From Candidatus Woesebacteria bacterium GW2011_GWF1_31_35 (GTDB taxonomy: Bacteria; Patescibacteriota; Microgenomatia; UBA8517): a stretch of DNA of 64,000 bases. The translations under genes were made by a program, and so were the position numbers. Of the stretch, positions 33,775 through 36,723 are shown in pieces. Location: NCBI GenBank assembly GCA_001029755.1, contig CP011214.1, positions 711,258 to 775,257 on the forward strand, written 5' to 3'. A model generated the notes under the pieces. It was not told where the DNA came from. It ran no database searches and was given only the letters and a program-made list of their open reading frames with translations. Positions within the stretch are counted from its first letter, which is position 1. The number at the start of each line of letters is the position of its first letter.

Positions 33775-34775
33775 TTAAGTTTTAGAATTGTATTTGCTAA
33801 TTTAAATGGATCATGTCTAAATAAATGTTCGTTTTTTAGATATCTTGATACGTTTTCATTTATTATTTTCATATTGGGAGCTATTTTTTTGCATTTTTCC
33901 TTATCTACTATTACCAAGTTTTGACCTTCTTCTTTATAAACCTTAAGGATCTCTTTGTCTAAATGATTTTTATTAACTATTAAATAATCGATAGCTTTAT
34001 TATTACCTAAATAAAAAAGAAATGATTTCAAAAAATCTGAAGCTTTGAAATTATCTGTTTCTCCTTCTTTTGTGGCTAAATTTAACACAATGATCAACTT
34101 AGCTTTTGATTTAATTATTGCTTCAGTTACACCTTCAACTAATAAATGAGGCAGGATACTTGTATAAAGATCTCCTGGAGAAAATACAATTTTATCTGCA
34201 TCTTTAATTGCATTTAAAACATCTTCATTGCTATCCACTCTTGAATCAAAATAAATTCTTATAATTCTGTCATTTGGATCAAAATTTTTATCTTTAACTC
34301 TTGTGTCAATGTTTTTTTCTCCAATTACAATATTACCTTTTTTGGTTTCTGCAACAAGTTGAACATTCGTTATAGTTGCGGGTACAATTTTAGCCATAAT
34401 TCTAAAAAGTTCTCTTTCCGCTACTATTCCCCTGTCTTGACCTGAATAAATATGATCTAATCTTGCTGTTATTAAATTACCAATTGAATGACCTTTTAAA
34501 GGTCCAGATGATTCTTCTAACCTATCATCAAAAAGTCTTTGAGCTACTTTTCTTTGATTTTCATCTTCCATTAAGGCAAGCATACAACGCCTTAAATCTC
34601 CAGGAGGCAAAACTCCCAATTCTGTTCTTAATCTTCCAGAGCTACCACCACTATCCCAAGTACTAGCAACAGCTGTTATTAATTTTGTTTCGTTTAAATC
34701 TCTAAGTCCATCAAGAAGATGAAATTGACCAGTACCACCTCCAAAAGTAACTATTTTCTGTTTATATTTAGCCAT
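33771..34775 (-). CDS. yvcK: YvcK/CofD-like gluconeogenesis-factor family protein (UPF0052)
   Basis: FGGGTG, DSGGSSGRLR, PPGDLR, GHSIGNL, SPGDLYTS and GETDNFKASD match the B. subtilis YvcK signature blocks in the same order. Confidence 0.85.
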   Translation of the reverse strand: MAKYKQKIVTFGGGTGQFHLLDGLRDLNETKLITAVASTWDSGGSSGRLRTELGVLPPGDLRRCMLALMEDENQRKVAQRLFDDRLEESSGPLKGHSIGNLITARLDHIYSGQDRGIVAERELFRIMAKIVPATITNVQLVAETKKGNIVIGEKNIDTRVKDKNFDPNDRIIRIYFDSRVDSNEDVLNAIKDADKIVFSPGDLYTSILPHLLVEGVTEAIIKSKAKLIIVLNLATKEGETDNFKASDFLKSFLFYLGNNKAIDYLIVNKNHLDKEILKVYKEEGQNLVIVDKEKCKKIAPNMKIINENVSRYLKNEHLFRHDPFKLANTILKLK

Positions 34776-36723
34776 TTATTCTTTTACTCATTTTTCTTTC
34801 TGCATTTTGTAATTGCTCTGGCGTATTAATTCCCTGCCATTCATTTGCATCAGGTAATTTATAAACCGAAACTTTTTGATTTTGGCTTAAAGCAAACTTA
34901 ATCAAATCAGTTAAATAATATTCTCCTGTCACAGGACTTTTGTTAATCTTATTAATATTTTTTCTTAACCAGTTAGATTTAAAAACATAAAGACCATCAT
35001 TTACTTCTTTTACCTTTTTTTGAGATTCATTTGCATCTTTTTCTTCAATAATTCCAATTAAATTATCATTTTTATCCCTAATAACTCTTCCTAATCCAAA
35101 TGGATTTTCTTGAATTAAACTCACGAATGTTAAAGAAGCATTTGAGTTTTTATGTGTTTCAATAACATTTTTGATTGTGGCTGGCTTATAAAAAGCACTA
35201 TCATCACCATATATTACTAAAATATCAATATATTTTAAATCTATTTTCTTTAAAGCTTTTAAAACAGAATTACCCGTGCCTAGAGTAGTTTCTTGAATAG
35301 CGTAATTGCATTCTTTCGATATTTCTCTTAATACTAAATTCCTTTTATATCCAACAACGGGAACTAAATTAATAACCCCTGCATTTCTTAAGTTTTCCAT
35401 CGAATATGAAATCATTGGTCTATCACAAATATTATGTAGAACTTTCGGCAAATCTGACTTCATCCTTGTTCCTCGACCTGCTGCAAGGATAACTCCAGCC
35501 AAATCTTTATAACCATTCAAAATATTTTTGACAAACTTTTGATCACTCCAAGGATGTTCAAAACCCCCATAAGCCATAGTTATTTCATGACCTTTTCCAC
35601 AAAAAACTAATGCATCTCCTTTTTTGGCAATCCTAATAGCATATGAAATTGCTTCACCACGTTCAGGAATACAGATATAATTTTTTGCATACTTTTTCAT
35701 TTGTTTTAAAATATCAAAGATATTTTCACTTCGAGGATCTTCTGCGGTTAAAATTGAAATGTCAGCAATTTCACCTGAAATCTTACCCATTTTAGATCTC
35801 TTTTTAATATCTCTTTCTCCAGCGCATCCAAATACTGAAATTAACCTCCCTTTGGTAATAGTTTTTAAATAACCTAAAACTGCTTCTAAAGAATCAGGTG
35901 TGTGAGCAAAATCAACAAAAATTTTAATACCAAGAGAATTTTCTATTTCTTCAAGTCTTCCGATTGGAAGTTTAAATGAATTAAGTGCGTTTTTAGATTC
36001 TTTTTCAGAAATCCCAAGTTTTTCACATACTTCAATTGCTGTCTGGGCATTTATATTATTAAAATCACCTTCCAATATTTTTAACTTTGTAGACTTTGGA
36101 CTAATAATTTGAATTTTGCAGGATTTTAAAAATGACATCTTAGTATTTTTATAATTTTTAAAAGTTTTATGATAATCAAGGTGTTCCGGAGCAATGTTAG
36201 TTAATACCCCAATGTCAAACTTGATTCCTGCAATCCTGCCTTGTTCAATTCCATGTGATGAAACTTCTAAAATTACATAATTAAATCCTTTATCAACAAA
36301 ACCCTTTAACATTTTATTTAAGGTAATTACGTCAGGAGTAGTGACATGATATCCAGGAACTGAAATAGAACTTATAAGCCCTGCCTTTTTACCTAATTTA
36401 GTTAAAATATGGTAGATTAAATGACAGGTTGTTGTCTTTCCTTTGGTTCCAGTTACTCCAATTATGGTTAATTTACTTGAAGGATTTTTGTAATATTCTG
36501 AGGCTAATTCTCCTAATTTTTCTCTCGAATTTGAAACTTTTATATAATTTACACCAGAAGCTATTTTGATATTCTCTCCGCTATGATATTCAGTTTCGCC
36601 ATAAATAATTTTTGCCCCGTTTTTAATAGCCTCATCTATATGATCATGTCCATCAGAAATTTGGCCTTTAATTGCTACAAATGTATCCCCAGATTTTATC
36701 AACCTTGAATCAAATGAAATCAT
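34768..36723 (-). CDS. murE: fused MurE (UDP-MurNAc-L-Ala-D-Glu--diamino-acid ligase) plus a GlmU-type N-terminal sugar-1-phosphate uridylyltransferase domain (no LbH acetyltransferase domain)
   Basis: Residues 1 to about 405 are MurE, with [33 protein letters not shown] and an EDPR variant of the DNPR motif. Residues 406 to 651 begin [23 protein letters not shown], which is almost identical to the GlmU pyrophosphorylase signature, and end GINTPEQL. No hexapeptide repeats follow. Confidence 0.8.
   Translation of the reverse strand: [651 protein letters not shown]

Follow-up and report, generated by a model that had tools for sequence, protein, structure and literature searches.

What does a protein that begins as a peptidoglycan ligase and ends as a sugar nucleotidyltransferase do for its cell, and where does its sugar substrate come from? 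The question is raised by an ORF on the minus strand of the 64-kb stretch of DNA analysed here (the window), which extends over 34768..36723 from an ATG start to a stop codon and encodes 651 aa. A preliminary description had read it as an in-frame fusion of a complete MurE with a UDP-GlcNAc pyrophosphorylase domain of the GlmU type, and Pfam and NCBIfam searches, the predicted fold, and the conserved residues all agree with that reading. The explanation we consider highly probable is that the gene yields one polypeptide carrying two independent peptidoglycan-precursor enzymes, MurE and a GlmU-type uridyltransferase, which became joined through loss of the murE stop codon.

The fusion is a single, widely conserved gene

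Pfam assigned four domains to the 651-aa protein, namely Mur_ligase (residues 1-78), Mur_ligase_M (90-211), Mur_ligase_C (255-378), and NTP_transferase (410-646), and with HMM E-values of 1e-121 and 1e-71 the matches of the two parts are not attributable to chance. The AlphaFold (AF2) model of the whole protein has a pLDDT of 91.7 and a pTM of 0.88. At the DNA level, the reading frame continues without a stop across the junction region (35480..35560). GC3 is identical in both halves of the gene (0.175) and the divergence of the MurE and GlmU-N halves co-varies (r = 0.70), so this is one gene and not a recent join.

The exact 651-aa protein was found in 87 blocks of the public assembly collection, 52 of which contain contigs of 0.2-1 Mb, and independent ENA and JGI assemblies are among its sources. 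Full-length homologues (n = 120) share 55-95% identity with it, and the same MurE-GlmU-N architecture occurs in more than 120 clusters drawn from many independent assemblies, and five further separate 50%-identity clusters show it too. The chance that an assembly error, a frameshift, or gene calling joined two genes is negligible: unfused murE and glmU-N neighbours do occur in related genomes (L083), but an identical protein recurs across those 87 assembly blocks, frame and junction length are kept in more than 120 clusters, and the DNA has neither the stop codon nor the frame change at the junction by which the preliminary description proposed that its reading could be refuted. The fusion gene is real and widely conserved in ultra-small CPR/Patescibacteria.

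The MurE module

The MurE module (residues 1-405; 35509..36723, minus strand) has the three-domain architecture of a Mur ligase, made up of a compact N-terminal, a P-loop-bearing central, and a C-terminal domain. It scores 405 bits against the curated murE family model TIGR01085 (cut-off 257) and 397.7 bits against the mDAP-type equivalog NF001126 (cut-off 373), whereas its 258 bits against the L-Lys type model fall below the cut-off of 536. The module is compact (about 405 aa), its M domain covering only profile positions 1-125 of 200, and Foldseek matched it to E. coli MurE (1e8c) with a target-normalised TM of 0.75.

The P-loop block lies at residues 89-100, where GTKGKT (92-97) fits the G-x-x-G-K-T/S pattern. 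The preliminary description had recognised this block but named it an "ATP-grasp P-loop", which is a misnomer, the Mur ligase P-loop belonging to Mur_ligase_M and ATP-grasp being the fold of Ddl. Residues 89-99 are invariant among 65 aligned homologues, as are the conserved central-domain catalytic residues E153, H181/H185, and K195, the last a putative carbamylated lysine.

MurE adds the third amino acid to UDP-MurNAc-L-Ala-D-Glu, a step that the MurE part of the fusion would likewise carry out. The DNPR motif of MurE selects meso-diaminopimelate, and the Thermotoga MurE with DDPR has relaxed specificity. Here, as the preliminary description pointed out, the motif reads EDPR (residues 328-331; Asn replaced by Asp, Arg kept), a form shared by 114 of the 120 homologues. 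Because EDPR stands in place of DNPR, the amino acid added by this module is uncertain.

The GlmU-type uridyltransferase module

The remainder of the protein (residues 406-651; 34771..35508, minus strand) is a GlmU-type GlcNAc-1-P uridyltransferase (pyrophosphorylase) module that ends in a helical arm. Its last 250 aa score 241 bits against GlmU PRK14354, at profile positions 2-241 of 447 only, and lower against Arch_glmU (108 bits), AglF (84), RmlA (63), ManC-type (51), and MurU (45) models. The module matches S. pneumoniae GlmU residues 5-244 (E 3e-44), and Foldseek superposed it on the S. pneumoniae GlmU-UDP-GlcNAc complex 1g97 with an rmsd of 1.5 Å over 243 columns. By HMM score and rmsd it is nearer to GlmU than to other sugar nucleotidyltransferases, and it does not model as the RmlA- or ManC-like domain that the preliminary description had held out as a contrary outcome.

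The GlmU-type signature block previously noticed at residues 410-432 is confirmed. Within it, the signature L-x2-G-x-G-T-x-M-x4-P-K occupies 413-427, and R420, M421, and K427 are invariant in the 120 homologues; the other catalytic residues, Q477, G482, T483, D508, E560, N575, Y603, and N633, are conserved in 118-120 of the 120. These residues preserve the S. pneumoniae equivalents L8-M16, K22, Q72, G77, T78, D102, E154, N169, Y197, and N227. In S. pneumoniae numbering, Asp102 and Asn227 are the Mg2+ ligands and Gln72, Gly77, Thr78, Glu154, Asn169, and Tyr197 contact uridine and GlcNAc, with Asn169 being important for uridyltransferase activity. Judged from these alignments, the uridyltransferase active site is intact, and the GlmU-N part would form UDP-GlcNAc from UTP and GlcNAc-1-P.

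That the domain instead activates another sugar-1-phosphate (MurNAc-1-P as MurU does, Glc-1-P, or GalNAc-1-P), or is a non-catalytic UDP-sugar sensor, is very improbable. NTP_transferase domains are versatile, and E. coli GlmU itself accepts GalNAc-1-P, if weakly (review PMC10087520). Against this stand the wide margin of the GlmU models over AglF, RmlA, and MurU, the conservation of all GlcNAc-contacting and catalytic residues, the close superposition on the UDP-GlcNAc complex, and the need for UDP-GlcNAc of MurA, MurB, and MurG in the same operon.

As the preliminary description held, the LbH half of GlmU is absent: no Hexapep match was found in the protein, and the GlmU match extends no further than profile position 241. 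Only 18 residues separate the Mg-binding Asn633 from the C-terminus, which lies within the GlmU helical arm, and the corresponding tails in the 120 homologues are 12-24 residues long. The stand-alone LbH-less form dominates among the nearest relatives of the domain, 101 of 150 representatives being 230-345 aa long. GlmU N-domains retain autonomous catalysis when isolated, with no requirement for trimer formation (review PMC10087520), and UDP-GlcNAc synthesis has been demonstrated for a naturally monofunctional GlmU (PMC4358021).

Two equivalog assignments were considered and rejected. The bifunctional GlmU equivalog has a cut-off of 450 bits, above the score of this domain, and the LbH GlcN-1-P N-acetyltransferase/trimerisation domain is missing; the MurU equivalog NF045761 has a cut-off of 250 bits, likewise above the score obtained.

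Genomic context

Pfam and NCBIfam scans place the fusion gene in a dcw cluster at 20696..41306 on the minus strand. In transcription order, this cluster contains mraZ, rsmH, ftsL, ftsI, murA, murE::glmU-N, yvcK, murC::murB, a gene for a Bro-N protein, murD, murI, murF, mraY, ftsW, and murG, followed by a NUDIX gene on the opposite strand, a possible ftsQ, ftsA, and ftsZ; the same order was found at two other loci. The window thus also holds a MurC::MurB chimera.

The fusion lies directly downstream of murA, as had been described. The murA gene (UDP-GlcNAc 1-carboxyvinyltransferase; 36727..37980, minus strand; TIGR01072 439 bits, cut-off 392.7) is separated from the murE ATG by a 3-nt spacer after its stop codon, and the order murA, murE::glmU-N is kept at four further loci, among them the fused relative L091. 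Immediately downstream, yvcK/glmR (33771..34775, minus strand; TIGR01826 261 bits, cut-off 196), which encodes a CofD-family UDP-GlcNAc-binding protein, overlaps the fusion gene by 8 nt. It also adjoins the fusion in L001 and L091, and in L004 and L091 it adjoins glmS. A UDP-GlcNAc consumer lies upstream of the fusion and a UDP-GlcNAc-binding protein downstream.

Origin and role of the fusion

At the junction (residues 392-416; 35476..35550, minus strand) the MurE tail passes straight into the GlmU N-terminus without a linker. This can be seen by comparison with unfused ends, the MurE of L002 ending ...PWSDQEVVKEILKR* and the GlmU-N of L083 beginning MNTLGAVVMAGG...: the junction in the window consists of such a MurE tail and such a GlmU N-terminus. 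In L083 the end of murE (423 aa) overlaps the start of a stand-alone glmU-N gene (248 aa) in the sequence TAATG, with murC following. In other lineages glmU-N is fused to murC (the GlmU-N::MurC proteins P0129 and P0146).

The fusion looks like the outcome of stop-codon loss between operon neighbours. A small, acetyltransferase-less glmU-N would have come to lie directly after murE in a compact Patescibacteria dcw operon, overlapping the murE stop codon, and loss of that stop would have joined the two. That glmU-N is also fused to murC points to a fusion of neighbouring genes rather than to a specific pairing of active sites. A separate GlmU-N may additionally be made by internal initiation at a TTG codon (Leu410).

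As to what the fusion is for, the preliminary description had proposed that it physically couples UDP-GlcNAc synthesis to the cytoplasmic Mur pathway. The shared polypeptide bears out part of this proposal, but MurE acts four steps later than MurA in the pathway, so that direct substrate channelling is unlikely. The fusion would mainly secure 1:1 co-expression of a UDP-GlcNAc-producing activity with the Mur enzymes, and possibly their co-assembly.

A stronger version, compatible with the two-enzyme explanation and adding a selective reason to it, is that GlmU-N is docked rigidly on MurE and makes UDP-GlcNAc inside a cytoplasmic assembly of MurA, B, C, D, E, F, and G, which would raise the local substrate for MurA and MurG. 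We regard this as rather unlikely, although several observations favour it. The spacing at the junction is invariant (22-23 residues in all 120 homologues), and the junction is ordered in the AF2 model, with a pLDDT of about 95 over a helix (394-402) and a following strand (405-414); with the high pTM of the four-domain protein, this could mean that selection has favoured a rigid interface and that the fusion is not neutral. Repeated fusions have also linked GlmU-N to both MurE and MurC, a recurrence that serves as a Rosetta-stone signal for associated functions, and a stabilising effect on a Mur complex has been argued for known chimeras of non-consecutive Mur enzymes (PMC10214165). On the other hand, the partner is merely whichever gene adjoins, murE or murC, stand-alone unfused GlmU-N is much commoner, and neutral fusions are likely in compact CPR operons with overlapping genes.

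Comparison with known fusions and GlmU forms

Described Mur chimeras include MurE-MurF (Bordetella, PDB 8f5d), MurC-MurB (Verrucomicrobium), MurC-Ddl (Chlamydia), MurG-MurC, MurD-FtsW, and MraY-MurG (Shirakawa et al. 2023, PMC10214165; Naqvi et al. 2016, PMC4803751). Like them, murE::glmU-N joins a Mur enzyme to another peptidoglycan-precursor enzyme encoded by a dcw neighbour; the known fusions are often linker-less too, and several combine non-consecutive steps. The difference lies in the partner, which here is an enzyme of UDP-GlcNAc supply and in the known chimeras is a Mur enzyme, Ddl, FtsW, or MraY. The preliminary description suggested that the architecture might be undescribed. The combination is absent from the chimera survey PMC10214165, which left out unidentified species and with them CPR metagenome-assembled genomes. 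Nevertheless, public databases commonly contain it under generic names, and its novelty is further lessened by the experimental characterisation of a monofunctional GlmU without LbH (PMC4358021).

The C-terminal 245 residues share the signature, catalytic residues, and fold of bifunctional GlmU from E. coli, S. pneumoniae, and M. tuberculosis (1g97, 1hv9, 3spt), including most of the connecting helical arm, but these enzymes continue into the LbH acetyltransferase/trimerisation domain, whereas in the fusion protein GlmU-N is attached to the MurE C-terminus. Similar in architecture are the Capnocytophaga canimorsus protein GlmU_Cc (Ccan_15070) and its orthologues in Bacteroidetes, which are likewise uridyltransferase-only (Renzi et al. 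2015, PMC4358021), and the engineered E. coli GlmU Tr331 (PDB 1fwy), which also lacks the acetyltransferase half. Those proteins stand alone, while the CPR domain is fused to MurE inside a dcw operon. MurU, the stand-alone nucleotidyltransferase (about 225 aa) of the AmgK/MurU recycling bypass, likewise feeds the Mur pathway with a UDP-sugar, but the score of the window domain is far below the MurU cut-off, and with MurA and MurB present in the operon no MurU-type bypass is implied.

GlcNAc-1-P supply and the site of N-acetylation

A GlmU-N domain unable to acetylate would have to draw GlcNAc-1-P from elsewhere, and the question of a separate acetyltransferase raised by the preliminary description is a real one. 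Across the 64-kb window and its 10-kb flanks on both sides, about 84 kb in all, no GlmU-type acetyltransferase, GNA1-like GNAT, or glmM was found. As neither acetyltransferase nor mutase was found in this region, the pathway as drawn is incomplete. GlcNAc-1-P could be formed by a separate acetyltransferase that follows GlmS and a mutase, or derive from salvaged GlcNAc that is phosphorylated and then isomerised by a mutase.

The first route would place a separate acetylating enzyme elsewhere in the genome, in the order GlmS, mutase, acetyltransferase, GlmU-N, and we give it nearly even chances. One candidate is a bifunctional sugar-1-P nucleotidyltransferase/acetyltransferase of archaeal type that is common among Patescibacteria. 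L002 and L090, the nearest Patescibacteria relatives without the fusion, have a gene of this Arch_glmU type (TIGR03992) in the slot after murE and before yvcK, where it presumably supplies UDP-GlcNAc. It belongs to a distant subfamily, given the far lower score of the window domain on Arch_glmU than on bacterial GlmU, and it keeps the LbH acetyltransferase domain and is unfused to MurE, the window domain being the opposite on both counts. On one 15-kb contig (L089) an Arch_glmU-type gene and a Mur-ligase::GlmU-N fusion occur together. The other candidate is an unrecognised acetyltransferase that, as in eukaryotes, would act on GlcN-6-P. Fong et al. infer an "unidentified acetyltransferase" for bacteria with only the GlmU N-domain. 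The glmS gene abutting yvcK in L091 also fits this route. Telling against it, none of the 18 fusion-bearing contigs longer than 100 kb (eight of them 0.5-0.77 Mb) was recognised among the best 120 Arch_glmU matches, which is a weak negative. In addition, the only LbH protein of the window is WcaF-like and lies inside an exopolysaccharide locus, and the window contains no homologue of the GNAT found in L083, which is RimI-like.

The second route, to which we give a somewhat less than even chance, would make these organisms GlcNAc auxotrophs like C. canimorsus, which obtain GlcNAc or its phosphate from a host or from their surroundings and encode only the last step, uridylylation, as part of MurE. 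In C. canimorsus a monofunctional GlmU accompanies GlcNAc auxotrophy, and 30 of 45 Bacteroidetes genera reportedly have monofunctional orthologues (PMC4358021). CPR bacteria have been described as metabolically dependent, TM7x is said to encode no UDP-GlcNAc production, and the lack of acetyltransferase and glmM genes within about 84 kb is consistent with dependence. GlmS next to yvcK and the fusion in L091 suggests de novo GlcN-6-P synthesis instead, but it is not decisive against auxotrophy, because GlmS activity was also inferred in the auxotroph C. canimorsus by its authors (PMC4358021). No GlcNAc kinase or transporter was identified in the part of the genome covered.

A more far-reaching reading, which we think improbable, is that the lineage makes UDP-GlcNAc by a route undescribed for bacteria, in which an unrecognised enzyme separate from GlmU performs the N-acetylation, for example on GlcN-6-P as in eukaryotes. 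The uridyltransferase would then have been selected within a rigid Mur-ligase (MurE/MurC) scaffold, belonging to a cytoplasmic complex for peptidoglycan precursors over which the neighbouring UDP-GlcNAc-binding YvcK/GlmR may exert control. The fusion matters mainly for the question of where N-acetylation happens in these organisms.

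Architecture and authenticity of the murE::glmU-N gene

The AT-rich window (GC ~30%) carries on its minus strand, at 34768..36723, a 651-aa ORF that our ORF listing returned exactly as the preliminary description had claimed. Pfam places Mur_ligase at residues 1-78 of the product, Mur_ligase_M at 90-211, Mur_ligase_C at 255-378 and NTP_transferase at 410-646. When the two halves were searched separately against NCBIfam, MurE and GlmU were the best matches: the N-terminal 400 residues matched the MurE model TIGR01085 at 405 bits (cut-off 257) and the mDAP-type MurE equivalog NF001126 at 397.7 bits (cut-off 373), and the C-terminal 250 residues matched GlmU at 241 bits, over profile positions 2-241 of ~450 only. 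The MurE module, compact at ~405 aa, is thus complete, as had been proposed, with the correction that its P-loop belongs to the Mur_ligase_M fold and not to ATP-grasp. Among the NCBIfam models matched by the protein, none spans both halves, and the only bifunctional MurE models returned were those of MurE-MurF and related fusions.

The murE::glmU-N gene is genuine and not an artefact of two genes wrongly joined. The frame is uninterrupted through the junction DNA, GC3 is 0.175 in both halves, and the exact protein is indexed in 87 assembly-collection blocks, 52 of them with 0.2-1 Mb contigs. The records include ENA ANAN16-1_SAMN03842442 scaffold_16 (252 kb) and JGI 3300003358 C687J50192_1000001 (434 kb), names which we take to match metagenome studies of groundwater from the Rifle aquifer; the fusion is also carried by the near-complete contig JBFOMY010000011.1 of GCA_040961665.1 (771 kb). 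In a search of 5.8 billion proteins, homologues with an identical domain set (630-693 aa, 55-95% identity, query coverage 97-100%) formed at least 120 distinct 90%-identity clusters; those that have a name are entered as "Mur ligase family protein [Patescibacteria group bacterium]", assigned to Woesebacteria, or labelled simply MurE. Across 120 homologues the divergence of the two halves is correlated (r = 0.70), and the spacing from MurE Trp392 to GlmU Gly416 is 22-23 residues in every one. The tail beyond the Mg-binding Asn is only 12-24 residues long, so none of the 120 has an LbH domain, the acetyltransferase half of GlmU, in agreement with its reported absence.

Identity of the C-terminal domain

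Other nucleotidyltransferase families also matched the C-terminal part, all at much lower scores than GlmU: the archaeal-type bifunctional family Arch_glmU at 108 bits, AglF at 84, RmlA at 63 and MurU at 45. The domain aligns with residues 5-244 of Streptococcus pneumoniae GlmU (E 3e-44), and we used the numbering of this alignment to score each active-site position across the 120 fused homologues. All of the equivalents checked are present in the window protein, and each is kept in at least 118 of the 120: the L-A-A-G-x-G-T-R-M signature including R420 and M421, K427 (Lys22 in S. pneumoniae), Q477, G482 and T483 (Gln72, Gly77 and Thr78), D508 (Asp102), E560 (Glu154), N575 (Asn169), Y603 (Tyr197) and N633 (Asn227). 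Asn169 of GlmU contacts the sugar, and the Ser at this position in S. aureus GlmU has been blamed for the weak uridyltransferase activity there.

The AlphaFold2 model of the fusion, built with 65 homologues, is confident, with a pLDDT of 91.7 and a pTM of 0.88; the junction blocks score ~95, and helix 394-402 leads directly into strand 405-414. In Foldseek searches, residues 1-~400 match MurE structures (1e8c, target-normalised TM 0.75), and the best match of the C-terminal domain is 1g97, GlmU in complex with UDP-GlcNAc and Mg2+, at 1.5 A over 243 columns. Judged by its residues and predicted fold, then, the C-terminal domain is a GlmU-type pyrophosphorylase with an intact active site, as the preliminary description had held. 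The alternative that it is RmlA-, ManC- or MurU-like was rejected on the profile scores, the active-site residues and the fold. The protein fails the full-length GlmU equivalog model solely because the LbH half is absent.

Predicted activities of the fusion protein

A MurE module and a GlmU-type uridyltransferase module share a single polypeptide, and each is conserved and structurally intact. GlmU N-terminal fragments are catalytically autonomous and do not need the trimer (Pompeo et al. 2001, as summarised in PMC10087520), and the natural monofunctional GlmU of Capnocytophaga canimorsus converts GlcNAc-1-P and UTP to UDP-GlcNAc (PMC4358021). We infer that the fusion protein has two activities, acting both as MurE and as a GlcNAc-1-P uridyltransferase.

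As to what joining the two would bring, expression of both at a fixed ratio, or assembly with further Mur enzymes, would be more plausible than channelling, a case already made for other chimeras of non-consecutive Mur steps (PMC10214165). With its invariant junction length and the high pTM of its predicted model, the protein may also have a selected rigid interface between the modules. The consumers of UDP-GlcNAc are MurA and MurG; because MurE works four steps later than MurA, direct channelling between the two active sites is unlikely.

The noted EDPR variant, at residues 328-331 (~35731..35742), replaces the mDAP-selecting DNPR motif, with its Asn changed, in 114 of the 120 homologues. With that Asn lost, it is uncertain which amino acid this MurE adds, and the third residue of the CPR (Patescibacteria) stem peptide may be other than mDAP.

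The dcw cluster and its neighbours

The fusion gene lies inside a complete dcw cluster, transcribed in the order mraZ, rsmH, ftsL, ftsI, murA, murE::glmU-N, yvcK/glmR, murC::murB, a Bro-N protein gene, murD, murI, murF, mraY, ftsW and murG, followed by a NUDIX gene on the opposite strand, a possible ftsQ, ftsA and ftsZ. The gene directly upstream is indeed murA (TIGR01072, 439 bits), 3 nt away, and the murA-fusion order recurs in the divergent fused homologues at loci L001, L081, L082 and L091. The yvcK gene adjoins the fusion in the window, L001 and L091 and is absent from L081; the window copy is annotated as a UDP-GlcNAc-binding protein (TIGR01826, 261 bits). For Listeria, YvcK/GlmR has been reported to serve as an accessory uridyltransferase for GlcNAc-1-P (PMC10128056).

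Several further features of these loci were recorded. The yvcK/glmR gene (33771..34775, minus), beside murE::glmU-N in the window, is embedded in CPR dcw clusters (the window, L001, L004, L090 and L091), and because it adjoins glmS in L004 and L091, a GlmS-GlmR regulatory module may be conserved in CPR. The same operon encodes a 711-aa MurC::MurB chimera (31639..33774, minus; murC 331 bits, murB 295 bits), a type known earlier chiefly from Verrucomicrobia. The window, L081 and L090 have the two genes fused, L001 and L083 have them split, so this chimera is younger or more labile than MurE::GlmU-N.

Between murC::murB and murD, with a 4-nt overlap on each side, lies the gene for a 280-aa Bro-N domain protein (30800..31642, minus), presumably DinD-like, which had no NCBIfam match; such a phage/antirepressor-type domain is odd within a dcw operon. 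The gene is kept in all assemblies of the window organism (L085, L086), and its slot in L081 holds MurL (UDP-MurNAc-L-Ala-L-Glu epimerase). In several CPR Mur ligases the N-terminal domain is missing. The window MurF (27688..28794, minus; 368 aa) matches its profile from position 70 and has no Mur_ligase N-domain; the N-terminal domain is likewise absent at L081 16697..17800, from the MurE of L083 (8730..10001, 423 aa) and from the MurE parts of protein clusters P0127 and P0166.

Directly upstream of the cluster, between glyS and recO, is a PIG-L/LmbE-family deacetylase gene (43794..44462, minus; BshB-like, 88 bits, below cut-off). As this family acts on GlcNAc-containing substrates, the gene could bear on amino-sugar handling. 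Very large surface-polysaccharide/glycosylation loci (window 1..10000 and 47000..64000; L087), a large share of a small genome, lie to either side of the cluster. They contain many GT2 and GT4 genes as well as PMT_2, Wzy_C, a Wzx-type flippase, a ManC-like gene (47893..49041) and a WcaF-like acetyltransferase gene (57375..57977). Among these glycosyltransferase genes, 7863..10016 (plus) encodes a secreted-looking 717-aa protein with Kelch/beta-propeller repeats and a Peptidase_C39-like domain, the Pfam domains being taken from the matching gene of L088.

Origin of the fusion

Locus L083 has the genes unfused: murE (423 aa), then a stand-alone glmU-N (248 aa, GlmU HMM 205 bits) with its ATG overlapping the stop codon of murE (TAATG), then murC. 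The junction in the window joins a MurE C-terminus (compare PWSDQEVVKEILKR before the stop in L002) directly to a GlmU N-terminus (compare MNTLGAVVMAGG in L083). When the GlmU-like domain by itself was searched exhaustively against 1.84 billion cluster representatives, 1,194 matched at E <= 1e-30. Of the top 150, 101 are stand-alone proteins (230-345 aa), 23 are of full-length GlmU size and 13 exceed 520 aa. Named sources of the stand-alone form are Patescibacteria, Curtissbacteria and a Nanoarchaeia genome bin. The long proteins scanned include further MurE::GlmU-N clusters (P0124, P0126, P0127, P0166 and P0256) and a mirror fusion, GlmU-N::MurC (P0129 and P0146; murC 295 and 339 bits).

A small LbH-less glmU located between murE and murC has thus joined one neighbour or the other, depending on the lineage. 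Where genes overlap in compact operons, loss of a stop codon would be expected to leave this pattern. Loss of the stop codon between murE and its overlapping neighbour would have yielded murE::glmU-N.

Other fusions seen in the scan, again of UDP-GlcNAc pathway enzymes, were P0254 (886 aa), GlmM with four PGM_PMM domains joined to a full-length GlmU with Hexapep repeats, and P0179 (950 aa), PGM_PMM_I followed by NTP_transferase. A genome scan with TGTKGKTTT and FGCAGERD, two generic MurE motifs, as seeds, which does not measure phyletic spread, supplied L001, L002 and L004 as comparison loci; among the matches listed, all apart from L001 were MurE-only, mostly from Clostridia and other Bacillota. 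Two fusion-bearing bins are labelled Proteobacteria (L001, "uncultured Gammaproteobacteria bacterium"; P0077, "Alphaproteobacteria bacterium"); their dcw synteny is that of Patescibacteria loci, and the labels are probably taxonomic mislabels in the source records.

Supply of GlcNAc-1-P

Within the 64-kb window and 10 kb past each end we found no glmS, glmM, GlmU-type LbH domain or plausible GNA1-like GNAT. The sole LbH protein of the window (57375..57977; WcaF-like, 102 bits, below cut-off) lies in a glycosyltransferase-rich exopolysaccharide locus and is not credible as a substitute for the GlmU C-terminal half. Directly upstream of L083 murE, a 164-aa GNAT was considered as a eukaryote-like GlcN-6-P acetyltransferase and rejected as RimI-like (52 bits against a cut-off of 86); tblastn found no homologue of it in the window or the other loci.

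In the closest unfused relatives, L002 and L090, the slot after murE holds an Arch_glmU-type enzyme, an archaeal-type sugar-1-P nucleotidyltransferase that is also an acetyltransferase (TIGR03992, 273 bits in L002), with glmS nearby and, in L090, also nagB. Because this enzyme occupies the slot that GlmU-N has in the fused lineage, the arrangement looks like in-situ displacement by a distant homologue. We compared fusion-bearing contigs with Arch_glmU and GlmS matches and found two true co-occurrences: L089, a 15-kb contig with both an Arch_glmU-type enzyme and a Mur-ligase::GlmU-N fusion, and L091, where a fused homologue (60% identity to the window protein) occurs with glmS directly beside yvcK. 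An apparent P0114-L090 pairing (13,504 bp in both) was a coincidence. Long fusion-bearing contigs are absent among the best 120 Arch_glmU and GlmS matches, a sample in which absence is uninformative.

The fused lineage thus has GlmS in at least one member, and the acetylation step must be supplied or bypassed. A separate acetyltransferase elsewhere in the genome and dependence on external GlcNAc, as in C. canimorsus, are about equally likely. The glmS of L091 speaks against dependence, though not decisively; the study of C. canimorsus likewise deduced a GlmS activity there despite the auxotrophy (PMC4358021). CPR papers leave the supply of UDP-GlcNAc unsettled, TM7x being said to encode none of it and Parcubacteria to carry an archaeal-type phosphoglucosamine mutase.

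Arch_glmU-type (TIGR03992-like) enzymes are widespread in Patescibacteria (2,911 matches at E <= 1e-10). Downstream of their genes (L002 4226..5476, L089 3318..4571, L090 667..1869) there is usually a small HAD-like gene, and then yvcK. The Patescibacteria-like contig L090 also has ATP-citrate lyase/citryl-CoA-type genes (3306..6265; Citrate_synt, Ligase_CoA, Citrate_bind) and nagB beside glmS.

Novelty and significance

Fusion of Mur enzymes with operon neighbours is a known phenomenon. A systematic survey of Mur chimeras lists MurE-MurF, MurC-Ddl, MurC-MurB, MurG-MurC, MurD-FtsW and MraY-MurG; it left out unidentified species and never names GlmU or CPR, and both MurE::GlmU-N and GlmU-N::MurC are absent from its types (PMC10214165). 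Fong et al. 2026 note truncated GlmUs with only the N-terminal part in other bacteria, and that of Capnocytophaga is already characterised (PMC4358021). We found no description of a MurE-GlmU fusion in the literature searched full-text on MurE, GlmU and Patescibacteria/CPR, a scope outside which many subscription papers lie. The fusion is apparently unreported; it is widespread and under-annotated, but not mechanistically surprising.

The catalogue of Mur chimeras gains MurE::GlmU-N and its mirror GlmU-N::MurC, from a major, mostly uncultured bacterial branch omitted from the published survey. The proteins are named only "Mur ligase family protein" or "MurE", so automated metabolic reconstructions may call UDP-GlcNAc synthesis absent though its last step is encoded. 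Whether CPR make UDP-GlcNAc or steal it is debated; with an LbH-less GlmU encoded, the gap shrinks to an acetyltransferase and a mutase, both missing, or else to dependence on host GlcNAc. The unfused, murE-fused and murC-fused states of one small gene illustrate operon compaction yielding multifunctional enzymes.
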